IMG/VR virus record: IMGVR_UViG_3300047560_000604
Span: 32,001-96,000 of that record
DNA: 64,000 nt
Source: a virus
Direction: 5' to 3' (one strand)
A model generated the notes under the pieces. It saw nothing but the letters and a program-made list of their open reading frames with translations. It had not been told where the DNA came from and ran no database searches. Shown piece after piece: positions 3,027 to 22,443 of the stretch. A program made the translations under genes and the position numbers. The stretch's first letter is position 1, and each line of letters opens with the position of its first letter.

Positions 3027-3045
3027 GTATATATAAGGAGTAGAA

Positions 3046-4119
3046 ATGGTAAAACCATTTGACGTAAGTAAGTTCCGCAAGGACATTACAAAAAGTATTG
3101 AAGGATTATCAATTGGATTTAATGACCCCACTGATTGGATTAGCACAGGAAACTATGCACTTAATTATCTCATTAGCGGTGATTTTAATAAAGGTATACC
3201 TCTTGGCAAAGTTACTGTATTCGCTGGAGAGTCTGGTTCGGGAAAGAGTTACATCTGTTCCGGGAACCTGGTTCGCCACGCTCAAGAGCAAGGTATCTTT
3301 GTTGTCCTCATTGATTCAGAGAATGCACTAGACGAAACATGGTTGCATAACTTAGGAGTTGACACAAGTGAAGCTAAACTTCTAAAATTGAACATGGCTA
3401 TGATTGATGACGTGGCTAAGACAATCAGTAAGTTCGTAGCTGATTACAAAACATTACCCACAGAAGATAGACCAAAAGTCTTGTTCGTTGTTGATTCACT
3501 TGGTATGTTGTTGACTCCAACTGACGTTAATCAGTTTGAAGCAGGTGATATGAAAGGTGACATGGGTCGTAAGCCTAAAGCACTTACAGCACTTGTTCGT
3601 AACACAGTTAACATGTTTGGTTCACTCGGCATCGGCTTGGTAGCAACGAACCACACATACGCATCGCAAGATATGTTTGATCCAGATGATAAAATCTCTG
3701 GTGGTCAAGGTTTCATTTATGCAAGTTCTATCGTTGTTGCGATGAAGAAGTTGAAGTTGAAAGAAGACGAAGACGGTAACAAAGTTACAGACGTTCGTGG
3801 TATTCGTAGTGCTTGTAAGATTATGAAAACTCGCTATGCAAAACCATTCGAAGGTGTGCAAGTTAAGATTCCATATGACACAGGTATGAGTCCATATTCA
3901 GGTCTTGTTGATATGATTGAGAAAGATGAATTGTTGAAGAAAGAAGGCAACAGTTTAGTGTACACGGGCATTGACGGAGTTATCATTAAGAAGTTCCGCA
4001 AAGCATGGGAATCAAACACTGACGGTTGTTTGGATACAGTTATGTCAGAATATTCAACTAAGATGGCAAAGATAAGTAATGTAGATTTAACAAATGAAGA
4101 AGGAGAATCTACAGAATGA
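3046..4119 (+). CDS. uvsX: RecA-like recombinase (UvsX)
   Basis: Walker A GESGSGKS, IDSENALD, VVDSLG, ATNHTY, SGGQGFIYASS. Confidence 0.95.
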   Translation: MVKPFDVSKFRKDITKSIEGLSIGFNDPTDWISTGNYALNYLISGDFNKGIPLGKVTVFAGESGSGKSYICSGNLVRHAQEQGIFVVLIDSENALDETWLHNLGVDTSEAKLLKLNMAMIDDVAKTISKFVADYKTLPTEDRPKVLFVVDSLGMLLTPTDVNQFEAGDMKGDMGRKPKALTALVRNTVNMFGSLGIGLVATNHTYASQDMFDPDDKISGGQGFIYASSIVVAMKKLKLKEDEDGNKVTDVRGIRSACKIMKTRYAKPFEGVQVKIPYDTGMSPYSGLVDMIEKDELLKKEGNSLVYTGIDGVIIKKFRKAWESNTDGCLDTVMSEYSTKMAKISNVDLTNEEGESTE

Positions 4120-8640: not shown

Positions 8641-8662
8641 GGGGACTTCGGTCCCCTTTTTT
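8641..8662 (+). terminator. Rho-independent terminator
   Basis: GGGGAC-TTCG-GTCCCC followed by TTTTTT. Confidence 0.9.
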
Positions 8663-8673
8663 CACCTCTAGTG

Positions 8674-8703
8674 TTGACTTCTGTGTACTAAAAGCTATAT
8701 ACT
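8674..8703 (+). promoter_or_regulatory. sigma70-like promoter
   Basis: TTGACT-18 nt-TATACT right after the terminator. Confidence 0.5.
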
Positions 8704-8709
8704 AAGAGA

Positions 8710-9753
8710 ATGAAAAAAGTGAAACCTACAACAAAAGAACAGTTAATATACTTTTTTATAACCAACGTAAGTTTAGGAACTTACGATAAAAGATTCTTGT
8801 CTAATATAGAATCAATGAGCCTCATTGAAGGAAAACCATTGACCTCTAACCAAGTAGCATTGTTAGATAAGATAATCGCTAGGTATAGTAGACAGTTATC
8901 TAAAATGGAAATCAACGTAGATGAAATGTTGGCACTGCCATGGAACCTACAACCGATTGAAAGTCTACCACAATTCACTGAGGCTCACTTGAATCTCATG
9001 GAGGATGTATTTCTACTACATAGTCCATATAAGAAAGAATTCATCGATGAATTCAAACAAGCTGACATTGATGGTAAGTGGAACAAAGAAGACCGGTGCT
9101 GGACATTCCCTGCGTGTACTCATTCATTAAGTATAGCTACCTTTCTGATTGAAAAACATTATAACAAAGTAAACTACTGCGACCAAACTAAAGAGTTTAT
9201 AAATACAGCTAGTGAGTACAAGGATATGAAATATTGGAATCCTACTTACAAGTATATCAACGGTTCATTCTATGTTGTAGCAACAAATCCATATCTTGAA
9301 TCTGCAATTACAGATTTAGAATTTAACTTAGACCTTTCAGTCTTAGCTAGATTAGTAAGATATGGTGTCACTATTGATGACACAGTATTGATGAAGTTCA
9401 GTGAAACGTATTCGGTTGATGAAATAGCCTTTGCTATAGATCCTAAACCCAAAGTAGAAATAAACGATGATTCTATCATAGACAAGTTACAATCAATTAA
9501 AACAGATTGTGTTGCTTTTATGGAACTCACCGGCAGTTCTAGTAATTTTTTCAAAGGGTTGAAAGAGCAACTAAACGACACTGACATGAAGCAATTAACA
9601 CTATCAACCCGAGAGCCAGTCAATGATGCTTTCGTAGATAGTGAATACCCCGTGCTACTTGTATCTGGCTTTTGGACTAAATCCATGATGGATTCTCGTC
9701 AAGCTGCCAAAGTTATACACGTAGTAAACAGTAAACCAATTTTTATTAAATGA
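8710..9753 (+). CDS. Hypothetical protein upstream of UvsW
   Basis: 347-aa ORF; central PYKKEFIDEFK…GKWNKEDRCW resembles HARP-like modules (weak). Confidence 0.65.
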   Translation: MKKVKPTTKEQLIYFFITNVSLGTYDKRFLSNIESMSLIEGKPLTSNQVALLDKIIARYSRQLSKMEINVDEMLALPWNLQPIESLPQFTEAHLNLMEDVFLLHSPYKKEFIDEFKQADIDGKWNKEDRCWTFPACTHSLSIATFLIEKHYNKVNYCDQTKEFINTASEYKDMKYWNPTYKYINGSFYVVATNPYLESAITDLEFNLDLSVLARLVRYGVTIDDTVLMKFSETYSVDEIAFAIDPKPKVEINDDSIIDKLQSIKTDCVAFMELTGSSSNFFKGLKEQLNDTDMKQLTLSTREPVNDAFVDSEYPVLLVSGFWTKSMMDSRQAAKVIHVVNSKPIFIK

Positions 9754-11237
9754 AACAATGCAAAATAATCGTTAAGGATGAAGTTAACGTAAAAATAGAA
9801 GGACTCGAACTAACAGAGCGCAAGGCTCTGATGAAGAAGTTTGAGTATGAGAAGCCGGGTGCGAGGTATTTACCAAGTGTCCGGCTTGGTCGTTGGAATG
9901 GCAAGATTAGCTATTTCAGTCTAGGTGGTTCTAGTTTTGTAAACTTATTACCTGACATCCTTCCCTTCATTGACCAAGCAGGTTATGATATTGAGCTAGA
10001 AGACTTGCGTGAGTATTCTACTACGTTCAACTTCACCGAGTTCAAAGAAGATAGCTTCGCCGCGCACGTGTGGCCTGACAAGCATCCAATGGCAGGTTCT
10101 CCTGTTATGATTCGTGACTATCAGATTGAGATTATCAACAACTTCTTAAAGAATCCGCAATCACTACAAGAAGTTGCGACTGGTGCTGGCAAAACAATTA
10201 TGACTGCCGCACTGAGTTATTCAGTAGAGGGTTATGGACGTTCAATCGTTATCGTTCCTAACAAGGACTTGGTTACACAAACAGAACGTGATTACATTAA
10301 CGTGGGATTAGACGTAGGTGTATACTTCGGTGACAGAAAAGACTACGGTAAGACTCACACAATTTGTACGTGGCAAAGTCTTGGCAACATGTTAAAGAAA
10401 ACTAAAGCAGATGAAGCAGAGATTACAATAGGTGAATTCATTGAAGGTGTATGCTGTGTTATCGTTGACGAAGTTCACATGGCTAAAGCTGACGTATTGA
10501 AAGAACTATTGACAGGGGTAATGTCACACATTCCAATTCGTTGGGGATTGACTGGAACTATCCCTAAGAGTGAGTTTGATTATAAAGCTATCATGGTCTC
10601 ACTTGGACCTGTTATCGGTAAACTATCAGCAAAAGAATTACAAGACAAAGGCGTGTTATCAAACTGTCACGTTAACATCGTACAATTACAAGATAAAGTA
10701 GAGTTCAGTAACTACCAAACTGAATTGAAATATCTTCTTGAAGATGACAAACGATTGACTTCTATTTGTCAGTTACTTGAGAAGATTAAAGAGACTGGCA
10801 ACACATTAATTCTTGTTGATAGAGTGTCAGCAGGTAGAGCAATTCAAACAAGATTGAGTGAGGCATTCACTAAAGAAAGACTTGATTACGAAGTTAGTTT
10901 TGTGTCAGGTGAGACAGGATTAACTGAGAGGAAAGAACAGTATGATGAAGTGGCTACAGCTACTAACAAGGTTATTGTGGCGACTTATGGTGTGGCCGCT
11001 GTGGGTATTAATATTCCTAGGATTTTCAATCTGGTTCTTGTGGAACCCGGAAAGAGCTTTGTTCGAGTTATCCAATCTATTGGACGAGGTATTAGAAAGG
11101 CAGAAGATAAGGACTTTGTACAAATCTGGGATATTACGAGTTCCTGTAAATTCGCCAAACGACATTTGACACAACGTAAGACGTTCTACAAAGAGGCGTC
11201 GTACCCGTTTTCGATTGAAAAACTAGACTATAAGTGA
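9750..11237 (+). CDS. uvsW: SF2 DNA helicase (UvsW-like)
   Basis: RDYQ, ATGAGKT, IVDEVH, GLTGT, QSIGRGIR motifs. Confidence 0.9.
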   Translation: MKQCKIIVKDEVNVKIEGLELTERKALMKKFEYEKPGARYLPSVRLGRWNGKISYFSLGGSSFVNLLPDILPFIDQAGYDIELEDLREYSTTFNFTEFKEDSFAAHVWPDKHPMAGSPVMIRDYQIEIINNFLKNPQSLQEVATGAGKTIMTAALSYSVEGYGRSIVIVPNKDLVTQTERDYINVGLDVGVYFGDRKDYGKTHTICTWQSLGNMLKKTKADEAEITIGEFIEGVCCVIVDEVHMAKADVLKELLTGVMSHIPIRWGLTGTIPKSEFDYKAIMVSLGPVIGKLSAKELQDKGVLSNCHVNIVQLQDKVEFSNYQTELKYLLEDDKRLTSICQLLEKIKETGNTLILVDRVSAGRAIQTRLSEAFTKERLDYEVSFVSGETGLTERKEQYDEVATATNKVIVATYGVAAVGINIPRIFNLVLVEPGKSFVRVIQSIGRGIRKAEDKDFVQIWDITSSCKFAKRHLTQRKTFYKEASYPFSIEKLDYK

Positions 11238-11249
11238 TACAATATAATT

Positions 11250-11750
11250 ATGCGAATTTTAACTTTAGACAACCAATACTATAACTTAGAGACACTACCA
11301 GAAGAAGTAGATGACTTACGCTTTGCTATCTTAGATAACAGCACACCAACAAACGTAGACTATCATTACATTCCATTAATCTTCTTAGAATCGTTTAACT
11401 CACCTGCTCTCGTATTGAGAGTGGGAGACAAGACTATAAAGATGCCGGTTGATTGGCAAATATTAATAGGCGAACCTGAAATGGGTGACTTAGAAACGTT
11501 ACCATTAACAAGTATCAATGATCGGGGATTCAAAGCATTTGAGTTTAATCCATTGTCAGCATTCAGACCCAGCTTTCAAGACATTGAGATTGTAGACATA
11601 TATCACGATGTAACATGGTATGCACCTCGATTGAAGAACGGACAGTTCTTATGTGTACCGATAGATGATACAGATAAACCCCGATGTGTTTACTTTGTAA
11701 AAGAGATTAGTAGAAACTGTGAAATCGTAGACTATCAACAGGCTTGGTAA
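11250..11750 (+). CDS. Hypothetical protein
   Basis: 166-aa ORF between helicase and clamp-loader-like gene. Confidence 0.75.
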   Translation: MRILTLDNQYYNLETLPEEVDDLRFAILDNSTPTNVDYHYIPLIFLESFNSPALVLRVGDKTIKMPVDWQILIGEPEMGDLETLPLTSINDRGFKAFEFNPLSAFRPSFQDIEIVDIYHDVTWYAPRLKNGQFLCVPIDDTDKPRCVYFVKEISRNCEIVDYQQAW

Positions 11751-12346
11751 TGGCAACTAAAAAACCCGCAATAGCAAAAGACGAAAAGTTTGAAAAGCAA
11801 GACCTTGATTTGTTTGAGGCACTAGGTGCATTAGACAAGAAGGACTATGGATATTATTCTAGGCTCACGGAAGACCAGAAGAAGAAATTCTCTCACTATA
11901 TGATGACTACTTGGATGAGTATGGTAGATTCACGCAACAGTGAATTGCAAGGATACTATATTCGTGCCACTGATATGGCAGCGAACAAGCACATGTTCAA
12001 CGAAAACGTTCAACGTCATCCTGAATTGCAATGGTTGATGCTATGTGCTATTAGTCCTGGCATGGGTGCTCAACGTAGAAAGTGGATCCCGCATCTATCA
12101 CCTAAAGTTGCGATGTTAAAAGAAACACCCAAGGCTAAAGACATAAAAGAATATTACAGCAAAATCTATCCTGGAACTAAAGACAGTGACTTGACTATGA
12201 TTAGTGATGTGTTTGTTAAAGAACACAAGAAGAAAGTATATCTAGCAAGTGTATACCCACTGATGAAACAGACTGACATTGAACTACTAGCACAAATGGT
12301 TACTGATGAAGATATTGAACAATATGAGCGAGACCGAGGAAACTAA
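11750..12346 (+). CDS. gp62: Probable clamp-loader small subunit (gp62-like)
   Basis: YYSRLTEDQKKKFSHYMMTTWMS…HPELQWLMLC resembles gp62-type proteins; gp44-like gene present at 62731. Confidence 0.5.
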   Translation: MATKKPAIAKDEKFEKQDLDLFEALGALDKKDYGYYSRLTEDQKKKFSHYMMTTWMSMVDSRNSELQGYYIRATDMAANKHMFNENVQRHPELQWLMLCAISPGMGAQRRKWIPHLSPKVAMLKETPKAKDIKEYYSKIYPGTKDSDLTMISDVFVKEHKKKVYLASVYPLMKQTDIELLAQMVTDEDIEQYERDRGN

Positions 12347-13022
12347 ACCAATATATGGTTGTGAATTTTGTAATCGTAAATTTGCAAGAGAACGCACATT
12401 AGTTTCCCACATCTGTGAAACAAAATCTAGATGGCTTAGTAGAGATACCGCAGGCAATCGTTTGGGATATCAATGCTTCTTGCAATTCTATAAAAAGAAT
12501 ACAACAGCAAAGAAACCCAAGCCATACGAGGAGTATATTCGTAGCCCGTACTATACTGCGTTTGCTAAGTTCGGTAGTTACTGTGTTGATGTGCAAGTTA
12601 TCAACGTAAGTAGATATGTTGATTGGCTATTGAAAGATAGTATCAAGCTAGATAATTGGGCAACTGACGCAAACTACACAAAGTTCTTGTGTGAGTATCT
12701 TAGAATAGAAGACCCATTTGATGCTATTTACCGAAGCGTTGAGAAGTGTGTTGAATTGGGTGAGGCCCAAAATATATTACCAAATGATGTGTTGAGATTT
12801 GGGAATGTGAACAAAATCTGTTACGCCATAACAACGGGCAAAATCTCCCCCTGGATGTTGTATTGTAGCGACAGTGGTACCCAATTTCTAGCTAACTTAA
12901 ATGAAGATCATGTTAGAATAGTCATAGATTATATAAATCCACAACAATGGGCATTGAAGTTTAACCGTGACGAAAATCTTAAACAACAAATCAGAGACAC
13001 GCTCCAAGCCGCAGGGTACTAA
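12306..13022 (+). CDS. Hypothetical protein with N-terminal Zn finger
   Basis: CEFC-x12-H-x-C. Confidence 0.7.
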   Translation: MKILNNMSETEETKPIYGCEFCNRKFARERTLVSHICETKSRWLSRDTAGNRLGYQCFLQFYKKNTTAKKPKPYEEYIRSPYYTAFAKFGSYCVDVQVINVSRYVDWLLKDSIKLDNWATDANYTKFLCEYLRIEDPFDAIYRSVEKCVELGEAQNILPNDVLRFGNVNKICYAITTGKISPWMLYCSDSGTQFLANLNEDHVRIVIDYINPQQWALKFNRDENLKQQIRDTLQAAGY

Positions 13023-13206
13023 AGTAACACTTGATTGGCGGCACGGGCGTGATGGGACAGAATCATGGAATGAGATTTGTGCTTGGGTAATTGAGCAATA
13101 TGGTATGCCAGGCACACTTTACACATGGCACCCAACGGAAGACTACATGCAGTTCTACTTTCATAGAGAAAAGGATGCTATTCATTTTAGTTTGAGGTGG
13201 TTATGA
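12967..13206 (+). CDS. LRW-family small protein
   Basis: AWVIEQYG…FYFHREKDAIHFSLRWL*. Confidence 0.75.
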   Translation: MTKILNNKSETRSKPQGTKVTLDWRHGRDGTESWNEICAWVIEQYGMPGTLYTWHPTEDYMQFYFHREKDAIHFSLRWL

Positions 13207-13466
13207 AAGAACCCTATTTTGTTAGAGAAAGATACATTGTTAATGTATGTAGAGGTCTATGGATAGAGCCTTGGCCCAAATACTTTGATAACTTTTGGAA
13301 TCATTGTCTTGCTATTGGTCATGAAAATGAATGGCAAACTATCACTGTTGCTAACCATGAACTTAAACCATTAGGTGGTAAACTGATTATAACTAAAACA
13401 CAAGGGTGGTACTTACGTTGGGATGATGAAAAAACTCACGCATTTTTTATATTAAAGTGGTCATGA
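13203..13466 (+). CDS. LRW-family small protein
   Basis: …DDEKTHAFFILKWS*; ATG at 13203 after GAGGTG. Confidence 0.75.
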   Translation: MKEPYFVRERYIVNVCRGLWIEPWPKYFDNFWNHCLAIGHENEWQTITVANHELKPLGGKLIITKTQGWYLRWDDEKTHAFFILKWS

Positions 13467-13645
13467 ATCAACATAGTATCGCTATCGAAAGATGGACTTG
13501 GAAACATAGAAATGAAGTGAGAATGTGGCTAGTTGAGAACTTCGGTGTTCATGGTGGTCGCTGGTTTGAAGATCCTGACTACGGATTAGATAATCTAGTT
13601 ATGGATGAAGATGTTTATATGATGTATAGGTTGAGGTGGGAATAA
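13463..13645 (+). CDS. LRW-family small protein
   Basis: MWLVENFG…DEDVYMMYRLRWE*. Confidence 0.75.
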   Translation: MNQHSIAIERWTWKHRNEVRMWLVENFGVHGGRWFEDPDYGLDNLVMDEDVYMMYRLRWE

Positions 13646-13818
13646 TGGATCTTACTGAAGAACAATGTGACAAAATTTTTACTCCAAGTGAGGCAGAGCA
13701 AACTTGGCTAGTGTTACAAGGTAAATGCCCGCACAACGGCGGCTGGCGTCATGTGGGTCACGGTCATAACGATGACTGCTATGAATGTAAATTATGCAGC
13801 GAATCAAGATGGTGGTAA
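13645..13818 (+). CDS. Small Zn-ribbon-like protein
   Basis: CPH…CYECKLC; TAATG coupling. Confidence 0.6.
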   Translation: MDLTEEQCDKIFTPSEAEQTWLVLQGKCPHNGGWRHVGHGHNDDCYECKLCSESRWW

Positions 13819-13819
13819 C

Positions 13820-14065
13820 ATGAGACTGAAAGCGTTCAGAGGCAATCTGATGGCGCACAAACATCGCGGTAATCGCTGGACAGTGAGAGTTGCTGGCAAG
13901 ATTGATGATGAAGTGTGGTGTTGGTTAAGTGATAATTATGGCGAAGAAGATTTTGAAAATGGTCCCTGGGCTAGAATGTATGCTTCATGGGACTATTATA
14001 GTCACGCTACTTATGATGTAACAGACCCTAAAATTATTACTATGTTGAAATTGAGGTTTGAATGA
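13820..14065 (+). CDS. LRW-family small protein
   Basis: CWLSDNYG…DPKIITMLKLRFE*. Confidence 0.7.
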   Translation: MRLKAFRGNLMAHKHRGNRWTVRVAGKIDDEVWCWLSDNYGEEDFENGPWARMYASWDYYSHATYDVTDPKIITMLKLRFE

Positions 14066-14379
14066 TTACAAGTGTATGGTACTCTACGGACGATCATAGA
14101 CCTTCTGTAGAGGGTTATTACCTAGCATACAAATTGCCTACTTTAGGTGATGATGAAGAAGGCTACGGGGTATACTACTGGGATGAGTTTTATAGAGACT
14201 GGAGAGAATCGAGTTCCCCTCAGTCACACGGCGTTAGAGTTAGCTTATGGTCAGAATTGCCACCACACGACCCTCGTGATAATACTGTACATCCACCCTC
14301 AGTAGCAGAAATTGACGCTTGGAATAATGTGATGAATGCCATTGACAAATTTAACATGGTGAAAGAGTTGAGTAGATAA
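14062..14379 (+). CDS. Small hypothetical protein (DUF551-like start)
   Basis: W.S..D.RP..EG.YL…V..W.ELP pattern. Confidence 0.6.
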   Translation: MITSVWYSTDDHRPSVEGYYLAYKLPTLGDDEEGYGVYYWDEFYRDWRESSSPQSHGVRVSLWSELPPHDPRDNTVHPPSVAEIDAWNNVMNAIDKFNMVKELSR

Positions 14380-14723
14380 TGTTAGAAGTTGTGAACAAGA
14401 TTCTCGGAATGTTTGGTAAAGACATTCAAGCGAAAGCTACCCGAAAGATAGCAAACCCCGGTGACCAATTTAGCCCATTTAAGATAGTAGATGGGTATAT
14501 TGGGTTTAAACCTTTCCTAATTATTGAGAATCAAAACGAAACTATGTTATACTCACATGACTGTGTAGCAATTGATACCCGGTCAGAAGTTGAATTATGG
14601 ATACTTGACCAACCAGTTCACATGTGGAAGTATGCAGAAGAATGTGATGATTGTCACCCTGCAATGACAAGATTTTTAGTAAACAAAGAATTATTAACTT
14701 GGATGGAGTTAAAATGGAATTGA
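14379..14723 (+). CDS. LRW-family small protein
   Basis: …NKELLTWMELKWN*. Confidence 0.7.
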   Translation: MLEVVNKILGMFGKDIQAKATRKIANPGDQFSPFKIVDGYIGFKPFLIIENQNETMLYSHDCVAIDTRSEVELWILDQPVHMWKYAEECDDCHPAMTRFLVNKELLTWMELKWN

Positions 14724-15151
14724 ATCACTTATCAGATAATGAATTGATTGAGCATATCATTAGATATGATAATGACCCTGTGAGGGTTCGTCTTGCCACT
14801 CACATGCAACGAGTTAGTGGTGCTATCATTGATGACTTGCTTGATGCTGGTATGGATGACACATGGTGTAATTTTGATAGTGTTGTGAATGGTGCTCAAT
14901 ATCACCCCGGTCGATATATTACGCACCTTGAGAATGAAGTTGAATATCTTAACGACAAATTATCCGACGCCCTCAAAGAAATCAAAGAACTTCAAGCACG
15001 AACTATCATGGACTTTATCGGTGAACTTAAACAAGAGATTAAGACTGTAGAATGGTGCAGAGATGAGGCTTACAGAGATAGAGACAAAGCACAAGAGAAT
15101 GAAAAGTTGATGAAAAGTAAACTTAGCATGTGGGCTGAGTTGAACAGATGA
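14714..15151 (+). CDS. Coiled-coil hypothetical protein
   Basis: ATG at 14714 inside the AAA-TGG (KW) codons of the upstream gene; helical C-half. Confidence 0.65.
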   Translation: MELNHLSDNELIEHIIRYDNDPVRVRLATHMQRVSGAIIDDLLDAGMDDTWCNFDSVVNGAQYHPGRYITHLENEVEYLNDKLSDALKEIKELQARTIMDFIGELKQEIKTVEWCRDEAYRDRDKAQENEKLMKSKLSMWAELNR

Positions 15152-15372
15152 ACGATAAAGTGAAAAGTTTTATGGAACAATGGTTCGGTGAAGAAGAACT
15201 CAATGACAAGTACTGGCCCTATCAGTTTACTATCAATGACTGGCAACGTATTCGTGAAACTGAACGATTTTGCTATAACAGTTTTAAAAGTGGTAACTGG
15301 CGCAATCGTGGAAGATACTTTGGATTCAAACGTAAGCAAGATTACGAATGGTTCTTATTAAGGTGGCTATGA
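15148..15372 (+). CDS. LRW-family small protein
   Basis: FMEQWFG…FGFKRKQDYEWFLLRWL*. Confidence 0.8.
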   Translation: MNDKVKSFMEQWFGEEELNDKYWPYQFTINDWQRIRETERFCYNSFKSGNWRNRGRYFGFKRKQDYEWFLLRWL

Positions 15373-15626
15373 GAGTAGAGTTTAATCAAGGCGTACCCGA
15401 AGGATGTAAGCAATGGCTTTGGGATAATGTCGGACCCGGCAATATAACATTGACTAGACCTGGTATCATTGACACAAAAGATAGTCCCGAGTATGCTTGG
15501 TTCTTTGAGCGTATTAAGAAACCAACAACCCCGGAATCGTTTTATGACGACCCATTTTATTTTGTCCCTACTATCACAGTGAAAGATGAAAAGATGGCAA
15601 CAATATTTGCTTTGAGGTGGCTATGA
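15369..15626 (+). CDS. LRW-family small protein
   Basis: QWLWDNVG…DEKMATIFALRWL*. Confidence 0.8.
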   Translation: MRVEFNQGVPEGCKQWLWDNVGPGNITLTRPGIIDTKDSPEYAWFFERIKKPTTPESFYDDPFYFVPTITVKDEKMATIFALRWL

Positions 15627-15871
15627 TGGATTTAGAACTTGTAAAAAAGATTGTGGCTAGACAAGGGCAGAATGAGTTTCTCAAAAAACCTATCGTATTG
15701 CCACCCGAAGCAAAAGTTGTCACTGGTCAAATGAAGGAAGATGCTTACTTACATTTCCTAGAAACTAACTGCGGGGTAGAGATACATTTGTCAGAATATC
15801 ATAACGAGATAGTTGGGTACAATGTCATTGATGAAAAGAAATTTTCTTGGTTTGTATTGAAATGGTCATGA
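15623..15871 (+). CDS. LRW-family small protein
   Basis: HFLETNCG…DEKKFSWFVLKWS*. Confidence 0.8.
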   Translation: MMDLELVKKIVARQGQNEFLKKPIVLPPEAKVVTGQMKEDAYLHFLETNCGVEIHLSEYHNEIVGYNVIDEKKFSWFVLKWS

Positions 15872-15882
15872 AGGGACAATAA

Positions 15883-16221
15883 ATGGCACAGCCAATCATC
15901 ATGCCAATAATTAGACAGGTGACACCCACTTTACTAGCTAATAGTATCTTAGGTGTACAACCCATGACGGGCCCGGTGGGTGAAATCTTTACTATGAAGG
16001 CTAACTACGCTCCGCTCAAATATAAATTTAGCCGTGCTAAATGGTACTATGCAGACCATCGTTATGAAGATTATGATGCTATCATAGCATGGTGTACTGA
16101 ACAGTTTGGTCCGCGACCCAAACGCCCTGATGCATGGACACGATGGGTTGATGAACACATTGACCGTATTAAATTCCGTGACGAAAAAGATTATGCTTGG
16201 TTTGTGTTGAGATGGTCATGA
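15883..16221 (+). CDS. Fusion of a major-capsid (gp23) segment and an LRW domain
   Basis: N-terminus PIIMPIIRQVTPTLLANSILGVQPMTGPVGEIFTMKANY matches the gp23 GVQPM region; C-terminus AWCTEQFG…DEKDYAWFVLRWS*. Confidence 0.75.
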   Translation: MAQPIIMPIIRQVTPTLLANSILGVQPMTGPVGEIFTMKANYAPLKYKFSRAKWYYADHRYEDYDAIIAWCTEQFGPRPKRPDAWTRWVDEHIDRIKFRDEKDYAWFVLRWS

Positions 16222-16496
16222 CAGATACAGTCAAACTAGAGTGGACAGATATTTGTCGCCACGAGCATAGGTGTGAGAGCGGGAAAATGTTCCATCACAC
16301 TGTGCCCAGCTATAGTGTATACGTTCAAGCATACCAATGGTTGCGGGTAGAGCGTGGGTATAAGTTTATATGTGCTGCAGCCGAGATATCAGAGGAAGAA
16401 TACCCGGAAAGGGGTGGTAAAATTCACACCGGCAGATTCATATTCAAGTTCTTATGTGAGCAAGAGTATATGTGGTTTAAGTTGAGGTGGAGTTAA
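16218..16496 (+). CDS. LRW-family small protein
   Basis: QWLRVERG…CEQEYMWFKLRWS*. Confidence 0.8.
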   Translation: MTDTVKLEWTDICRHEHRCESGKMFHHTVPSYSVYVQAYQWLRVERGYKFICAAAEISEEEYPERGGKIHTGRFIFKFLCEQEYMWFKLRWS

Positions 16497-16774
16497 TGGA
16501 ATATTTTTACGGTGGCGGCGGCAACAATCGCCCTGTCTTTTTATACAGATTTAAAGTCAACCCTTGTACTACTGAAATGTATAAGTGGGCACAAGCATAT
16601 CCTGAGAAAGGTCCCTTCAGTCGGTTTCATGTTGAATGGCGAGGGGCTTATAGCAAAATGGATAGACCCTTAGAATATGATGTAATTCAGTTTGAACATA
16701 GTGAAGCCGCTAAAGTATTCAGAATCGCATTTGCGGGTGAGTATGAAGAAACCACTTTCAAAGAATACAGATGA
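16496..16774 (+). CDS. Degenerate LRW-like small protein
   Basis: KWAQAY…FEHSEAAKVFRIAF. Confidence 0.65.
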   Translation: MEYFYGGGGNNRPVFLYRFKVNPCTTEMYKWAQAYPEKGPFSRFHVEWRGAYSKMDRPLEYDVIQFEHSEAAKVFRIAFAGEYEETTFKEYR

Positions 16775-17001
16775 ACAAGTACGATTACTGGAGATTGTTA
16801 AGAATTCTTAAAACAGAATATGATAAACAGTATACTGGTTACTATGAACCGACATATACTGGTTTCACAGATTCGTTTGACAAGTACATACAAGAACAGT
16901 ACGGAATAAAAATGTGGATTCATAATGACGGTAATATTGATGGTACTTTTGAAATTCTAGACGAAGGTAAGTATGCATGGTGCCTACTTAAACATAAATG
17001 A
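16771..17001 (+). CDS. Degenerate LRW-like small protein
   Basis: KYIQEQYG…DEGKYAWCLLKHK*. Confidence 0.7.
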   Translation: MNKYDYWRLLRILKTEYDKQYTGYYEPTYTGFTDSFDKYIQEQYGIKMWIHNDGNIDGTFEILDEGKYAWCLLKHK

Positions 17002-17438
17002 AAATACTTAGACGAATCAAAGCCTACGTTAGACTCAAAAAGAGCAGAAATTTTCTAAAGAAACATAAGTGTTTATCTTATAAACAATACAAGCTCCAGT
17101 ATGACGATGATATAATTAAGTACGCTACTTTGGTTAGCCACTTCTATCACGGTTACCCATATACATGTTACTTTGAGAAAGTACCCGACGGTGAGTTGTT
17201 GATGCCTTGGTTAGAGAAAATGGACGATTGGTGTCATACTAATTGTTCGGGTAAAGTCAGACATGATATCCATAGAGTTATTCGGGAAAAGGGCTTGATT
17301 CACAATCAATATGATGATACAATGATATGGAGTGATATAGAAGATTTTTCCATGAATGATATCGGTGGACATGACTTGTTATTCTATGCGTTTAAAAGTG
17401 AAAAGGATTATGCGTGGTTCAAACTAAGATGGCAGTAA
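16998..17438 (+). CDS. LRW-family protein with N-terminal extension
   Basis: DWCHTNC…FKSEKDYAWFKLRWQ*. Confidence 0.8.
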   Translation: MKILRRIKAYVRLKKSRNFLKKHKCLSYKQYKLQYDDDIIKYATLVSHFYHGYPYTCYFEKVPDGELLMPWLEKMDDWCHTNCSGKVRHDIHRVIREKGLIHNQYDDTMIWSDIEDFSMNDIGGHDLLFYAFKSEKDYAWFKLRWQ

Positions 17439-17692
17439 AAACCAAAGAAGAAGAAATGATGGATATCTTGGCTGAAGAAATTCGCAAAGAAATTGATGAG
17501 GGTATCATATCAAATATATTAGTTGAGACTGGATGGACACCTGTACAGTTTTATTTTAAGAACGGTGAGCAAGCAGTTGATGTACAGATTTGGTTAGCCG
17601 GAACATGTACTGATGACTATCGTAGATTGGGCAGTGACTACTTGTTTAAAAGTAAGCAAGATGCTGAATGGTTTATTCTACGATGGCTATGA
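17429..17692 (+). CDS. LRW-family small protein
   Basis: …FKSKQDAEWFILRWL*. Confidence 0.8.
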   Translation: MAVKTKEEEMMDILAEEIRKEIDEGIISNILVETGWTPVQFYFKNGEQAVDVQIWLAGTCTDDYRRLGSDYLFKSKQDAEWFILRWL

Positions 17693-17946
17693 CATTCAAA
17701 ATTGATGAGGGCAGAGTGTATGGAGCACGATACTATACCGCAAAACCTCATTGTGATGATTGGGATGAAGCAGTCCCATGGTACATACTACAAGACTGGG
17801 TAGAAGAAATGTTCGGAGAAAGTAAGGGTTCTATATGGTTTGATAAGGGAATACCTCAACCAGGTGAAAGATGGTATGTGAACAATGCGAAATTTTGGTT
17901 TCGCAACAAAGAAGATTTAGAATGGTTTTTATTAAGATGGCAATGA
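17689..17946 (+). CDS. LRW-family small protein
   Basis: DWVEEMFG…FRNKEDLEWFLLRWQ*. Confidence 0.8.
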   Translation: MTFKIDEGRVYGARYYTAKPHCDDWDEAVPWYILQDWVEEMFGESKGSIWFDKGIPQPGERWYVNNAKFWFRNKEDLEWFLLRWQ

Positions 17947-18188
17947 AAATAGAAGCAACAAAAGAGTTAGTCCAAATGATTGAACGTTCCGCACGTGAGT
18001 GGAAGAGGATCAAACCAATCCTAGAAGAAAAACATCGTCATTATGATACCTACGCTGAAGATATGTTCGGGATCAATGTCGATTTTGGTGTGTTTGATAA
18101 CAAGGTAGCTATCATTGGTGCCCAAATAATAGATGATGAAAAGTACGTCAACTTTCTATTAAGGTACGGAGACATGCCAAATGAGTAA
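17943..18188 (+). CDS. LRW-family small protein
   Basis: YAEDMFG…DDEKYVNFLLRYG. Confidence 0.75.
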   Translation: MKIEATKELVQMIERSAREWKRIKPILEEKHRHYDTYAEDMFGINVDFGVFDNKVAIIGAQIIDDEKYVNFLLRYGDMPNE

Positions 18189-18465
18189 TATGCACAAAGC
18201 AGTAAAAGAAATTAAAGAATTAGGCTCCTTCAGATATTGGGATGAACACTACTACGGCAGTAAACGAACTATTACTACTATTACTTGGAAAGGCAGGGGC
18301 GAAGTTGACTCTGATGAAATACAAGATTGGTGTTTAACCTCATTTGGTAAGAGCGGCTATCAAGAAGAAATCGAAGATAGTCTTTGGGTTGATAATTGTC
18401 AGTACGGTGAGCTTATGTTATGTAGACCCGAACTACTCACAGCGTTTTTATTAAGATGGACATGA
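18181..18465 (+). CDS. LRW-family small protein
   Basis: DWCLTSFG…RPELLTAFLLRWT*. Confidence 0.8.
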   Translation: MSNMHKAVKEIKELGSFRYWDEHYYGSKRTITTITWKGRGEVDSDEIQDWCLTSFGKSGYQEEIEDSLWVDNCQYGELMLCRPELLTAFLLRWT

Positions 18466-18728
18466 AATTTGACATAAACAGAAGCATAGGCTGGAACATA
18501 GATAGAAGAATTGTGAAGCGTACTGACATTATCACAGACGGCGCAGATTGCTATCCATGGACTGAAACGTTTGTCATTTGGCCCAGACGAAGTATTTCGG
18601 GTGCTCCGTTGTTCTGGACTAAAGCATACAAGCGTAGAGTTTGGGTAGTATGGGGTACGGGGTTTCATATGGAACCAGAAGTTCAATATGCTACAGCATT
18701 TGATTTGTTGACACATGGTAACGATTAA
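18462..18728 (+). CDS. Small hypothetical protein
   Basis: Trp-rich 88-aa ORF, ATGA-coupled. Confidence 0.65.
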   Translation: MKFDINRSIGWNIDRRIVKRTDIITDGADCYPWTETFVIWPRRSISGAPLFWTKAYKRRVWVVWGTGFHMEPEVQYATAFDLLTHGND

Positions 18729-18966
18729 ACTTAAACGAGGGCTAGAGCCACAAGCAGAACAATGGCTTGCTAAGAATGTGGGGCCAAGAATGCACTACCT
18801 CCATAATTCAATCGGTGGAGAAGGCTGGATCGCTAAGAAAGGTACCGAACCATTTGAGTATACCGATCAACAAGGTAATACGAGACAAATGACTGTTATA
18901 GTATGGAACCTCACATTCCAAGAAGATAAGTATGCTACTTGGTTTAGGATAATGTTTCCAGAATGA
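18715..18966 (+). CDS. Degenerate LRW-like small protein
   Basis: QWLAKNVG…FQEDKYATWFRIMF. Confidence 0.7.
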   Translation: MVTIKLKRGLEPQAEQWLAKNVGPRMHYLHNSIGGEGWIAKKGTEPFEYTDQQGNTRQMTVIVWNLTFQEDKYATWFRIMFPE

Positions 18967-19181
18967 TAGAGGTTAAACTCATAGATTTGATGCCCAATGA
19001 GATTATGGACATCGTAAAAGAACTAAGAAAGAACGGGTGTGTACAGGGTTTGGACTTTGATTTTGAGTATCATAAGCCCAAATATGATGACTTCGGCCAT
19101 GAACCAGTGTATAATAGACATACAATATTCAAGTTTTACAAAGAAGAATTAGCGACTTGGTTCGCATTGAGGTATCAATAG
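18963..19181 (+). CDS. LRW-family small protein
   Basis: …FKFYKEELATWFALRYQ*. Confidence 0.8.
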   Translation: MIEVKLIDLMPNEIMDIVKELRKNGCVQGLDFDFEYHKPKYDDFGHEPVYNRHTIFKFYKEELATWFALRYQ

Positions 19182-19465
19182 TGGCAATATCAGGTATAGG
19201 TAATAGCACAGGCACATTCATGCCCTACACAGGGACTCGTCCGCCTGAGGATCAAAGTAAATATGAAATTCATCACATGGGTAAAATCTTTCATCAGATT
19301 GATTTGAAATTTAGTAAAATTGATCCAGTAGACTATATTAAATGGTGCCGTAGAAATCTAGGTGATCGCGGTTCTACATGGGAGTTCTGGATGGCAGGTG
19401 GAATGTTGTATATTGAAGTCTGGGGCGAGAAGGCAAAGTTTACTTATGAAATGTGGAAGAACTAA
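19181..19465 (+). CDS. Degenerate LRW-like small protein
   Basis: KWCRRNLG…GEKAKFTYEMWKN*; GTG start at 19181 overlapping TAG. Confidence 0.6.
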   Translation: MAISGIGNSTGTFMPYTGTRPPEDQSKYEIHHMGKIFHQIDLKFSKIDPVDYIKWCRRNLGDRGSTWEFWMAGGMLYIEVWGEKAKFTYEMWKN

Positions 19466-19758
19466 TGAGTGAGCTAGTAGCAATCAATGGAATTGTACAA
19501 GCACGTAGCCAATACATGGTATCCGGGGATAACATCGTGTTTCACATCGCACCGCCGTGCGGCTCAAGAATCTGTATTCTGTCAGAAGATGGTAGGTCTG
19601 ACTATGAAGGCACCGGCGACACGTATGTGTACCCAGGGGCTTCTAATGAAAGAACAAAATACAAACAGTTTATGGAAGATGTTTATGACAAACGTTATAA
19701 CCCAACAGTCAAAGACGCATTAGAGAAATTAAAAGTAGTAATGGAATTAGTACGATGA
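19465..19758 (+). CDS. Small hypothetical protein
   Basis: TAATG-coupled ORF. Confidence 0.6.
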   Translation: MSELVAINGIVQARSQYMVSGDNIVFHIAPPCGSRICILSEDGRSDYEGTGDTYVYPGASNERTKYKQFMEDVYDKRYNPTVKDALEKLKVVMELVR

Positions 19759-19955
19759 GTGCCGAGAATACATGGCGTGTAGTTGCAGGACTTAAACCCA
19801 TCCAATCATTTCGTTGCCGCTTTGGTTGGCATCGCTGGACTAGTTATGAAGTTGTAGAGCGACATGAATTCTCCATGCCATACGCCAAGTGTCATTGTGC
19901 AGACTGTGGATTACCTAGAATAGAACAACCCTACTCAAGCAAGAAAGAAAAGTAA
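19755..19955 (+). CDS. Small Cys/His putative Zn-binding protein (DUF1660-like)
   Basis: CRFGWHRW…CHCADC. Confidence 0.6.
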   Translation: MSAENTWRVVAGLKPIQSFRCRFGWHRWTSYEVVERHEFSMPYAKCHCADCGLPRIEQPYSSKKEK

Positions 19956-20200
19956 TGGCTAATGCTTCACGCACTTGGCAAGAAAATCTAAAACAGTGGC
20001 AAAATTCAGATTTACCGGGTCTTTCAAATAGTCTCAATGAAATTGATATGCTCGTATTAGTACATGGTAAGATGCAAGAGTTATACCCGGGCAATTATTC
20101 ACTTGATTGGAAGTTTGATTCAGTAACCGGGGCTTTCAAGTTGTATCCGAAATTTAACACACCAGAAGACGAGACTTGGTTCATATTAAAATATAGTTAA
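19955..20200 (+). CDS. LRW-family small protein (last of array)
   Basis: MQELYPG…TPEDETWFILKYS*. Confidence 0.75.
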   Translation: MANASRTWQENLKQWQNSDLPGLSNSLNEIDMLVLVHGKMQELYPGNYSLDWKFDSVTGAFKLYPKFNTPEDETWFILKYS

Positions 20201-20229
20201 GGAAACAAACGACATTATGATTGACGAAT

Positions 20230-20237
20230 GATAAATA
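20230..20237 (+). promoter_or_regulatory. T4 late-type promoter motif
   Basis: GATAAATA ~20 nt upstream of the HNH ATG at 20258. Confidence 0.55.
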
Positions 20238-20257
20238 CTTTATCAGGAGTTAAAACA

Positions 20258-20875
20258 ATGGATTACAGGAAACTTTGGGAATCGCACAACGGACCTATAC
20301 CAAAAGATAAAGATGGTAGAAGTTATGAAATACATCACATTGATGGTAACCATCAAAATAATGTCATTGAAAATTTGAAATTAGTAACTATTCAAGAACA
20401 CTATGATGTACATTATTCGCAAGGTGACTACGGGGCATGTCTGGCTATCATTATGAGAATGAATGTTCCGGTTGAGGTGTCAAAGAAATTACAAAGCAAA
20501 CTAAGTAAAGCAGTTGCCGCAAAACGCATTGCCGAAGGCACCCATAACTTTTCATCCGAACTTAGTAAGCGAGTTCAGAAAGAAAGATTAGATAATGGAA
20601 CACACAACTTTCAAGGTGAACAAGGTAGCCTTAATGCTGTACAACGCAATAATAAACTAGTAGAATTAGGAAAGCATCCGTGGGCAGGTGAGTTAGGAAA
20701 GATTCATAATAAGAAAGTAGCTACTGAAAGAATTGCTAATGGTACGCATAACTTTCAAGGAGAGATGAACCCTAATAAAAACATGCCTAAGGTAACATGC
20801 CCACATTGTGGTAAAGTAGGTGGTCGTAATTCAATGAAACGATACCATTTTGATAATTGTAAGAATAAGGAATAA
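20258..20875 (+). CDS. Free-standing HNH (homing) endonuclease
   Basis: YEIHHIDGNHQNNVIENLKLVTIQEH; C-terminal GTHNF repeats and CPHC zinc knuckle. Confidence 0.85.
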   Translation: MDYRKLWESHNGPIPKDKDGRSYEIHHIDGNHQNNVIENLKLVTIQEHYDVHYSQGDYGACLAIIMRMNVPVEVSKKLQSKLSKAVAAKRIAEGTHNFSSELSKRVQKERLDNGTHNFQGEQGSLNAVQRNNKLVELGKHPWAGELGKIHNKKVATERIANGTHNFQGEMNPNKNMPKVTCPHCGKVGGRNSMKRYHFDNCKNKE

Positions 20876-20877
20876 GT

Positions 20878-21438
20878 ATGGCGGCGGACATTATGATAGA
20901 TATTGAGAGTTTAGACACAACACCTGATTGTGCTATTCTTACGATTGGTGCAGTAAGATTTGATCCTAAGGGTTCAGGTGTTGTTGAAAAACTTGAACTT
21001 AGACCTACATTAGAAGACCAAACAGAAAAATATAATAGGAGAATTAGTGATGATACACTTCGTTGGTGGTCCGAGCAGTCCCCAGAAGCCCTCGAGGAAG
21101 CGATGGGCGACAGAGGCCGTGTCCCGTTTGCTGAATGCATGGAGACGCTATATAAGTTTTGTTGGAATCGCCGTGCTGTTTGGAGTAACGGTGCTCCATT
21201 CGACTTGGTCGTTATGGAGCACGCCTGGCGACAAACAAGTGATAAACCAAATCCTATCCCTTGGCCGTTCTGGACAATGAGAGATACTAGAACTCTCTTT
21301 GAAATAGCAGGTGTTAAACTAAGTGATGGCGGCCATTCTACGAGTCACAAGGCTGTGGAAGATGCTGAACGACAAGCCATTGTCGTACAAAAAGCATATA
21401 TGAAACTAATCAAAGCAGAATTGGTAGCACCACGATGA
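20878..21438 (+). CDS. DEDDh 3'-5' exonuclease
   Basis: MIDIESL, WSNGAPFD, HKAVEDA. Confidence 0.85.
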   Translation: MAADIMIDIESLDTTPDCAILTIGAVRFDPKGSGVVEKLELRPTLEDQTEKYNRRISDDTLRWWSEQSPEALEEAMGDRGRVPFAECMETLYKFCWNRRAVWSNGAPFDLVVMEHAWRQTSDKPNPIPWPFWTMRDTRTLFEIAGVKLSDGGHSTSHKAVEDAERQAIVVQKAYMKLIKAELVAPR

Positions 21439-21857
21439 GTATTTTTTCTGATCTGTTTCACACACAGGAGAACGATATCATGCACACAAAGATGTGTAGC
21501 ATGTGCAATCGAACTTTGCCCGCGAACGGTGCTCATTTTGCAAAAGAAGGTAGCAAGGGATATTTGCGATATGAGTGCAGGGATTGTGCTAAGAAACACA
21601 GCAAACTATTAGCAAAGATTAAAAAGTCAGCACCTAAAGTTGCAGTTGACCACAAATGTCCTGTGTGTTTAAGAGGTGCAGCCGATCTCAAAACTTATGG
21701 AAAAAACAAAAAATCAGTTTGGGTCGCTGACCATGACCATGCTACTGAAAAGTTTCGAGGGTGGCTGTGTCACAAGTGTAACTTAGGTCTAGGTAATTTA
21801 GGTGATGATGCAGAACGATGTATTAGAGCCGCGGAGTATTTAAAAAATGAAGTTTAA
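21435..21857 (+). CDS. Endonuclease VII-family nuclease with N-terminal Zn finger
   Basis: CSMC…CRDC; CPVC…DHDH…RGWLCHKCNLGLG. Confidence 0.85.
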   Translation: MSIFSDLFHTQENDIMHTKMCSMCNRTLPANGAHFAKEGSKGYLRYECRDCAKKHSKLLAKIKKSAPKVAVDHKCPVCLRGAADLKTYGKNKKSVWVADHDHATEKFRGWLCHKCNLGLGNLGDDAERCIRAAEYLKNEV

Positions 21858-22443
21858 TTCAGATATTGATATTGACTTTGGTAACAGAGAAAATATACTA
21901 CAGCATATCAAGCATACGCCGGCGGCGATGCGTAATGTAACTCCCATACGAAAACATGCTACTGGAGTATATGTAACTGATGTTCCATATGATGCTGTAA
22001 ATGATATGGCTAATATTGATTACACTGTAGCAGAAGATAGAGGGTATGTTAAGCTAGACTTTTTGAACGTACACATTTATGAGCATGTTCGTGATGAGGA
22101 TCACTTAAAAAGTCTAATGAAAGAACCTGATTGGGCTAAGTTGAAAGACAAAGATTTTGTTGAAAAGTTAATTCACTTGTCTAATCATTACAACAGCCTT
22201 CAGCGTATGCCTGAGCCGGTAGATAGTATTCCTCGTCTTGCTATGTTTCTTGCGATAATCCGCCCAGCGAAGAAACACCTCATTGGTCTCCCATGGAAGA
22301 AAGTCTCTGAATCTGTGTGGGAAAAAGAATCTGATGGTTATCATTTCAAGAAAAGTCATAGTGTCGCCTACGCAAATCTTGTTGTTGTTCATATGAATCT
22401 GTTGAAAGAGGGTCTAGGGCATACGCTTGACGAGAGTAATTGA
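21847..22443 (+). CDS. dnaE: Miniature DNA polymerase III alpha (DnaE) catalytic fragment
   Basis: DIDIDF, KHATGVYV, GYVKLDFL, LAIIRP and FKKSHSVAY: the DnaE palm/finger motifs in order within 198 aa. Confidence 0.75.
   Translation: MKFNSDIDIDFGNRENILQHIKHTPAAMRNVTPIRKHATGVYVTDVPYDAVNDMANIDYTVAEDRGYVKLDFLNVHIYEHVRDEDHLKSLMKEPDWAKLKDKDFVEKLIHLSNHYNSLQRMPEPVDSIPRLAMFLAIIRPAKKHLIGLPWKKVSESVWEKESDGYHFKKSHSVAYANLVVVHMNLLKEGLGHTLDESN

Follow-up and report, generated by a model that had tools for sequence, protein, structure and literature searches.

We analyzed a window of 64,000 nucleotides (nt) comprising bases 32001-96000 of one 133,466-bp IMG/VR virus contig (IMGVR_UViG_3300047560_000604) and focused on a dense array of small genes at positions 12967-20200 of this window. 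The completeness of the contig was estimated by CheckV at 38%, which implies a genome of ~350 kb. The array is filled by 27 genes on the + strand that encode proteins of 57-146 amino acids (aa), with gene starts refined to the ATG nearest to the preceding stop; several of the open reading frame (ORF) labels used here keep their unrefined starts. The genes overlap by 1, 4, 8, 10, or 14 nt at 24 of the 27 junctions, and the largest gap is 38 nt. Endings of the type L-[RK]-[WYF]-x were found in 17 of the 312 + strand ORFs of the whole contig, 16 of which belong to the array, and in 1 of the 382 ORFs on the - strand. These data agree with an earlier note, made from the sequence alone, which had described a head-to-tail array of small ORFs with 17 L-[RK]-[WYF] endings; 16 of these stand at the end of the protein, and one, the FLLRYG of ORF 17871-18188, lies seven residues ahead of it. 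We propose that about 17, and up to 21, of the array genes are ancient paralogues of a single undescribed domain of ~60 residues (the LRW domain), as part of an interpretation that is weighed below.

The shared helix and the F-rich block ahead of the ending, both pointed out in the note, were recovered in an alignment (A1) of 21 candidates, in which a W-x-x-[ED]-x-[FY]-G helix, a central Trp, and an F.F..E.D..WF.LRW block are aligned at pairwise identities of 13-27%. The Trp content is 4.7%, compared with a background of 1.2%. When each candidate was left out in turn from a hidden Markov model (HMM), 13 of the 21 were recovered at E <= 0.012, each at or just after the 20 training members, and 11 of these 13 were not outscored by any non-member among the 1952 six-frame ORFs of the contig; the core members thus recover each other in the HMM check that had been suggested. 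For a comparison by hhalign against two independent subfamily profiles, orthologues found in related contigs were added to each ORF. The probability exceeded 90% for 12 ORFs (strong members) and was 80-90% for five (13197, 16771, 17871, 18715, and 19157; moderate), whereas four (13751, 14379, 18963, and 19955) matched weakly and mostly through the terminal helix. Aligned to one another, the subfamily profiles A2 and A3 score 99.5% (E 7e-23). The chain also contains six ORFs (13636, 14062, 14651, 18456, 19453, and 19755) that are unrelated to the family. By these sequence criteria the LRW family is real, with 12 strong, 5 moderate, and 4 weak members. The earlier count of 17 members plus four degenerate ones was about right, but ORF 16487, listed among the degenerate ones, is a good member (93.9%). 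The genes of the array are as follows.

12967-13645, + strand: LRW genes 12967-13206 (strong), 13203-13466 (moderate, terminal part only), and 13463-13645 (strong), by HMM and hhalign.
13645-13818, + strand: Cys-rich 57-aa ORF outside the family, ending in SRWW (hhalign, Pfam and PHROG scans).
13820-14065, + strand: weak LRW candidate ending in LKLRFE (hhalign probability 35-57%).
14062-14379, + strand: 105-aa gene outside the family, kept in relatives (70% identical in locus L003; hhalign, locus comparison).
14379-14723, + strand: weak LRW candidate ending in MELKWN (hhalign).
14714-15151, + strand: 145-aa gene outside the family (hhalign, PHROG scan).
15148-15871, + strand: LRW genes 15148-15372, 15369-15626, and 15623-15871, all strong (HMM and hhalign).
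15883-16221, + strand: LRW member with a copy of the capsid Gol region (residues 3-46) and the LRW domain at residues 50-112 (Pfam Gp23, structure model).
16212-17438, + strand: LRW genes 16212-16496 (strong), 16496-16774 (strong against A2), 16771-17001 (moderate, ending in LLKHK), and 16998-17438 (strong, 146 aa), by HMM and hhalign.
17429-17692, + strand: LRW member with an N-terminal helix similar to capsid region B, a spine-helix segment (Pfam Gp23, comparison with major capsid proteins).
17683-18465, + strand: LRW genes 17683-17946 (strong, structure model 2), 17937-18188 (moderate, 7-residue tail after LRY), and 18181-18465 (strong), by hhalign.
18456-18728, + strand: 90-aa gene outside the family, kept in relatives (hhalign, locus comparison).
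18715-19465, + strand: LRW candidates 18715-18966 (moderate), 18963-19181 (weak, terminal helix only), and 19220-19465 (moderate), by hhalign.
19465-19955, + strand: two genes outside the family, 19465-19758 and 19755-19955 (CxxC motifs; hhalign, PHROG scan).
19955-20200, + strand: last weak LRW candidate, ending in FILKYS, with no orthologue in the fetched loci (hhalign).

Two paralogues were modeled with AlphaFold2 (AF2). In model 1 (ORF 15883-16221, 49-row alignment), residues 50-112 fold in the order beta-alpha-beta-beta-alpha with predicted local distance difference test (pLDDT) values of 89-97, and model 2 (ORF 17668-17943, 31 rows; mean pLDDT 86.6, predicted template modeling score 0.77) has the same core with one extra strand ahead. 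The two proteins are only ~20% identical, yet they share a common, confident core fold, and the LRW domain is accordingly modeled as a Trp-rich beta-alpha-beta-beta-alpha core of ~60 residues. The check for a common fold proposed in the note therefore came out in its favor for the core members, and the idea of a single amplified alpha/beta scaffold is borne out by the models and by the 99.5% profile match. In line with the note, no characterized family matched in any of the searches. Neither Pfam nor PHROGs contained a match to the LRW domain of the window ORFs or of 49 homologues, and the matches of array ORFs in these databases were limited to Gp23 segments and one tail-fiber-like N terminus. 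A profile search of Protein Data Bank (PDB) sequences returned only a chance match (E 0.44). With either model, the hits of Foldseek against the PDB and of a wide VIA-align search did not rise above noise and were generic two-layer alpha/beta sandwiches (best VIA Z values 5.8 and 5.0, where Z under 8 is the noise range stated for the tool). BFVD yielded only uncharacterized 'uncultured Caudovirales' proteins and the ESM Atlas only viral hypothetical clusters. Relatives are called 'hypothetical protein' in every named source, barring two evidently automatic Joint Genome Institute names, and cluster look-ups brought no further name. No enzymatic motif was found in the LRW proteins, and no longer fused forms were found, which is weak evidence. 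Taken together, we found no evidence that the family has a name, a solved structure, or a characterized relative.

The codons of the LRW ending differ sharply from those of the remaining contig. In the long contig ORFs, AGG accounts for 3% of the Arg codons and CGT for 45%, whereas in a census of 418 distinct family members from related loci the R of LRW was encoded by AGG in 244 of 343 cases (71%) and by CGT in 6 of 343. At the Leu site, TTG was used in 58% of cases against a background of 30%, and 256 of the 418 members are followed by an ATGA overlap. Window endings of the form TTG AGG TGG NNA TGA create a GAGGTG Shine-Dalgarno (SD) sequence 5 nt before the next ATG; in variant endings (..AGA TGG NNA TGA), the ATG inside AGA-TGG provides an in-frame start 10 nt upstream. 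The chain thus combines overlap of stop and start with an SD inside the upstream coding sequence, as in translational coupling. L, R/K, and W are kept even where the codons (AAA, CGA, or CTA) are not SD-like, and they sit in the last helix of both models, in which W is invariant. Since this conservation coexists with the codon bias, the LRW ending is under constraint at the protein and the RNA level together. The earlier note had considered coupling only as an alternative that would refute a family; coupling is indeed real, but it fails as the sole cause of the ending because the helix motif is real too.

As in other translationally coupled overlapping genes (ATGA or TAATG), the array combines frequent overlaps with an SD at short distance from the next start. 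It differs from them in that the SD or start has a fixed place within a structural motif conserved across a protein family, and in that a rare codon has become the majority codon at this site across hundreds of genes. The last codons of each gene would supply the SD or the start for its successor, and a joint at the LRW codons would let whole genes be gained, lost, or reordered without loss of expression. As every gene carries the initiation signal of its successor, exchange of whole genes at this joint is possible, which fits the shuffling described below. In this family, selection has acted on a protein motif and on a translation-initiation signal through one set of codons, a clean example from nature; this dual coding accounts for a striking anomaly in codon use and offers a route of cassette-like gene exchange without intergenic regulatory elements.

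The window profile matched 523 cluster representatives at E <= 1e-3 among 1.84 billion proteins. Among the 150 of the 523 matches listed, the proteins measured 61-156 aa and the domain was located at, or a few residues from, the C terminus, except in a 1176-aa helicase-repeat protein that matched only through the W..FG helix. From IMG/VR, 78 loci were fetched, most of which contain same-strand arrays of 3-20 members. Four jumbo genomes (338-382 kb, 97-100% complete) harbor 26, 23, 7, and 4 copies in one to three clusters, so that jumbo phages spend several kilobases and up to 26 genes per genome on one uncharacterized family. The cultured Sinorhizobium phage Phosso (PV764938.1, 469 kb; host S. 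meliloti) is a carrier, with about 18 copies detected by profile search, all named 'hypothetical protein', whereas the same search found none in Xanthomonas phage XaC1. Against 50,697 phage records, neither megablast of the array nor tblastn of the bare domain gave a match; the Phosso copies needed the profile search. A scan of 185,579 species genomes for the junction pattern produced three matches, one of them a true array and the other two due to chance, and the strict FRDEKDYxWFxLRW DNA pattern had no match in species genomes. Given its distribution in viral contigs, with one array on a contig of a metagenome-assembled genome (MAG), the family looks virus-restricted.

Three side observations concern the family. 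On the 6.4-kb contig DLXM01000070.1 (L100), which is binned into the Bacteroidetes MAG UBA11400 but is probably from a phage, about 16 LRW genes form a chain; the contig gives at most a weak hint of a host. Phosso encodes a tRNA-Arg(CCU) at 2821-2895 (L098 322-396), ~4.8 kb upstream of its first LRW matches at 7.7-14 kb, with one weak match just downstream of the tRNA (3037-3186); this tRNA reads AGG, the rare codon favored at the LRW ending. In the upstream part of our contig, outside the window, three + strand ORFs (G000:C1 18445-18708, 6454-6765, and 21068-21343) scored E 0.006-0.1 with the family HMM; one of them ends in YYKLKFE, and they may be outlying members.

The array occupies a defined slot between conserved genes, listed here with the signals that precede them.

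8641-8703, + strand: strong terminator-like hairpin (GGGGACTTCGGTCCCC with a run of T behind it) and, next to it, a sigma-70-like promoter (TTGACT-18-TATACT), directly 5' of gene 8710.
9750-13022, + strand: conserved upstream flank with a UvsW-type helicase (9750-11237) and three conserved unknown genes (phrog_11279, 11758, and 11058).
20228-22443, + strand: downstream flank with an HNH endonuclease, a DEDDh exonuclease, a 140-aa gene, and a small polymerase-like gene.

The UvsW-type helicase is 54% identical to that of phage Phosso and ~48% identical to those of PA5oct-like jumbo phages. The slot between the UvsW block and the exonuclease/polymerase block recurs in L003, L006, L011, and L013, for which both flanks were fetched; L008 and L009 show the upstream block only, likewise 5' of the array, and L005 the downstream block. 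Flanking genes are up to 96% identical among relatives. Most array members have orthologues at 49-86% identity in related contigs, and between phages gene order and gene content vary: the comparison of copy number and order that the note had called for, now run, gave 4-26 copies in the four near-complete genomes and a shuffled order in the related loci. Relative to L003, the ratio of nonsynonymous to synonymous substitutions (dN/dS, Nei-Gojobori) was 0.12-0.34 for array genes and 0.05-0.10 for flanking genes, values that are rough since dS is near saturation. Orthologue identity and dN/dS together indicate that the paralogues are old and that each is kept by purifying selection; the divergence is ancient, and the comparison gave no sign of ongoing diversification. 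The earlier view of a hyper-divergent library resembling an immune repertoire is not supported, as the individual copies are conserved.

A crude gene map showed no true gap of >40 nt from 8710 to ~22.8 kb, and the signals at 8641-8703 are the probable start of a packed unit of ~14 kb that includes the array. In agreement with the note, consensus scans of 12967-20200 gave no clear internal signals: 49 promoter-like sites were found compared with 37.6 +/- 6.1 expected, and 4 terminator-like sites compared with 5.9 expected. The T4 late-promoter motif TATAAATA was not enriched (3 copies, 5.4 expected), and an Rfam search of 11-22 kb returned no match. Judged from the established timing of T4 replication genes, the unit, which the array shares with replication genes, is probably expressed in the early or middle period.

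Some LRW members carry pieces of larger proteins. Residues 3-46 of ORF 15883-16221 correspond to positions 5-48 of the 376-position Pfam model PF07068 (Gp23), with an E value of 6.3e-13. This Gol-type stretch (capsid region A) matches 2488 phage records, 40 rows of which were inspected. The matched protein is a major capsid protein in nearly all records, a few being annotated as vertex paralogue, and identity reaches 61% for XaC1. Residues 4-42 align to residues 93-131 of T6 gp23, and we take the Gol region to span residues 93-122 of gp23. The most conserved gp23 stretch has been equated with the Gol region (PMC3014915), which in T4 gp23 serves the e14 Lit protease as a cofactor by way of EF-Tu (reviews: PMC3014915 and PMC9712102). 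Unlike the T4 region, the copy in the LRW member stands alone, away from the capsid gene and fused to an unrelated domain. The fusion of region A to the LRW domain is kept in dozens of 90%-identity clusters and in the relatives G001-G003, and it occurs in many contigs at 44-84% identity. For ORF 17429-17692 (label 17414), the match to Gp23 positions 171-199 (E 0.0018) was below the cut-off; its N terminus is 41-46% identical over 24-33 aa to the major capsid proteins of relatives, and look-alike region-B fusions are significant in G002 (E 5.5e-9) and G003. Phosso has a fusion of region C to the LRW domain at about 113.9-114.4 kb. In G001, a look-alike (L090) of ORF 14379-14723 carries a region-A graft; the likeness consists of the HMWK and LLTWM.LKW motifs, seen by eye and unaligned. 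We rejected ORFs 15883 and 17414 as capsid proteins, as they match only model positions 5-48 and 171-199 of Gp23 instead of the HK97-fold core; the real major capsid proteins of relatives measure 396-402 aa.

A census of the fetched DNA comprised 684 family ORFs, 475 of which have an N-terminal stretch of at least 25 aa; 36 match a larger protein. Almost all of these matches are to capsid regions A, B, or C, in addition to one DnaB-like helicase group and one short match of 14 residues. Grafts are thus recurrent but rare. BLAST of the array ORFs against the contig's own large proteins revealed no local donor, and the 133-kb contig has no true major capsid gene. Two related observations deserve mention. 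The helicase group consists of LRW N termini in L022, L024, and L025 (8946-9458 / 9686-10198) that resemble residues 176-215 of a 501-aa DnaB-like helicase (L028 15315-16817; 41-44% over 41 aa). Phosso also has a 228-aa ORF (L104 1390-2073; PV764938.1, ~182.2-182.8 kb) in which region A is followed by a short collagen-like stretch of G-x-x and then by an unrelated tail; it has no LRW domain.

Considering these data, we favor, with a probability of about 0.6, the interpretation that the array is a hyperplastic accessory block of a ~350-kb jumbo phage of the T4 superfamily, with 27 translationally chained genes, ancient LRW paralogues, a dual-coded joint, and a carrier domain. The LRW domain would be a stable carrier whose variable N-terminal extensions and loops bind various targets of host or phage origin, and some members, a minority, would display capsid regions A, B, and C and the DnaB-like helicase piece as molecular mimicry. 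Our best guess is that the LRW proteins are early accessory or adaptor proteins. The data show the family, its predicted fold, its distribution, the selection on it, the dual coding, and the grafts; we infer the time of expression, target binding, and any role in host takeover or counter-defense. Several points weigh against this interpretation. The fold is a common two-layer alpha/beta arrangement and hence uninformative on function; the isoelectric points (pI) of the members range from 4.6 to 9.2, without a common charge signature; the promoter call at 8641-8703 derives from a consensus match; the dN/dS values are only rough; and grafts occur in only ~5% of the family ORFs, which rules out mimicry as the general function. 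We also dropped the idea of a uniform DNA mimic or a uniform nucleic-acid binder, as the charge is too variable.

For Lit and CapRel, sensing of capsid proteins by way of short motifs has been reported (bioRxiv 10.64898/2026.01.04.697583; PMC9712102); a mimicry role for the LRW grafts is therefore plausible but unproven. In a more specific scenario, LRW carriers that present mimics of the capsid Gol region, spine helix, and C-terminal strand and of a replicative helicase piece would be made early and occupy the host factors or immune sensors by which these core motifs are read, ungrafted paralogues would bind other host targets through their loops, and the whole would form a cassette-swappable repertoire for counter-defense or host takeover. 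We regard this scenario as doubtful. No member matches a described anti-defense protein in the Pfam, PHROG, PDB sequence, and fold searches, which did not include an anti-defense library. The fusions in which LRW members have kept the best-conserved segments of the capsid protein are testable leads to how phages handle host systems that read capsid motifs.

The predominance of capsid regions A, B, and C among the grafts could also mean that the LRW proteins are internal head, decoration, or assembly-modulating proteins that co-assemble with the major capsid protein or regulate it, and jumbo phages do pack paralogous small proteins in the head. We consider this unlikely. The array belongs to a replication-gene unit preceded by a sigma-70-like promoter and is outside the structural module, the late-promoter motif is not enriched, and capsid pieces are confined to a small fraction of the members. 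Furthermore, the N termini are the variable part of the proteins and contain no counterpart of the N-terminal capsid-targeting sequence shared by T4 internal head proteins of the IPI-III type.

Another explanation, to which we give slightly less credence, is a largely self-propagating cassette system, or 'gene nursery', whose 3' end serves as the joint for expression and recombination, with most copies of little benefit and the grafts arising from accidental illegitimate recombination. It would account for the shuffled order, for copy numbers from 0 to 26 in related phages, for a conserved stretch of roughly 15-24 nt at many junctions, and for the HNH endonuclease at the array edge. It is harder to reconcile with purifying selection on the paralogues across contigs with near-saturated synonymous sites and with the wide retention of the region-A fusion; moreover, paralogues of 13-27% identity are too diverged for homologous recombination outside the joint.

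It appears still less probable that the domain is a small nucleic-acid- or ribosome-binding module with KH-, SUI1/eIF1-, or ACT-like topology that tunes the translation or fate of phage or host messages. This would suit genes in an extreme translationally coupled chain, and weak likenesses were seen to aIF1/SUI1 (Foldseek template modeling score 0.50-0.54, E 0.6, probability 0.6; VIA Z 3.8) and to KH domains (VIA Z 4.5-5.1). As to topology, the beta-beta-alpha-beta-beta-alpha-beta fold of SUI1/eIF1 has a final strand that model 2 lacks, and the beta-alpha-alpha-beta-beta-alpha order of KH has one helix more than the LRW model. All these structural matches are, however, in the noise range, no GXXG-type motif was seen by eye in alignments A1 or A2, and there is no conserved basic patch.

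Finally, that the ending is only a by-product of coupling between unrelated ORFs, as the strong nucleotide bias at the LRW codons and the four ORFs sharing little beyond the terminal helix might suggest, is hardly credible and is refuted for at least 12 members by profile matches and models, given that ~60 residues are conserved, including W70, C71, G76, and W88 far from the junction, that leave-one-out recovery, hhalign probabilities of 90-99%, and two confident models with one core concur, that the motif persists without SD-like codons, and that the non-family genes of the chain couple without an LRW ending.

The accessory block that we favor can be compared with the hyperplastic regions of T4-type phages, which are shuffled through promoter-early stem-loop (PeSL) cassettes (Arbiol et al. 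2010, PMC2839356; Comeau et al. 2014, PMC4122927). In both cases, small accessory genes, mostly of unknown function, form blocks between conserved core genes and are gained, lost, and reordered one by one at a repeated joint that contains expression signals, as seen for the array in L003, L006, L008, L009, L011, and L013. The GC-rich hairpin and early promoter at 8641-8703 form one PeSL-like composite upstream of the array. A promoter and terminator for each cassette were not found within 12967-20200, where the sites are not in excess and the genes overlap. The joint of the array consists instead of the last five codons of the upstream protein, used as SD or start, with no intergenic promoter and stem-loop; it hands on translation rather than transcription, and most of its cassettes are paralogues of one fold. 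The array also resembles anti-defense or host-takeover islands, such as anti-CRISPR loci and the T4 early small genes, in being a variable block of small, unannotated, probably early genes with fast turnover, but such islands usually encode unrelated proteins, whereas the array genes share one scaffold.

Further observations were made at the edges of the array and in the remaining contig. The HNH homing-type endonuclease (20228-20875) that forms the 3' edge has no counterpart in L003, L005, and L006, where the last array gene in common (19453 or 19157) is immediately followed by the exonuclease gene, and ORFs 19755 and 19955 are also missing from L003; the endonuclease looks like a recent mobile insertion. 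Residues 8-40 of the non-LRW ORF 19465-19758 match positions 48-81 of the 373 in PHROG 18673, 'tail fiber protein' (E 5e-5), and this ORF may be another small gene with a piece of a structural protein. Paired CxxC-type motifs without a database match are present in ORFs 13645-13818 and 19755-19955, which are possibly zinc ribbons. Outside the window, ARAGORN identified a permuted gene resembling transfer-messenger RNA with the tag ANDSAYSLAA (G000:C1 3562-4011) and an amber-reading tRNA with the anticodon CUA (G000:C1 6078-6154).

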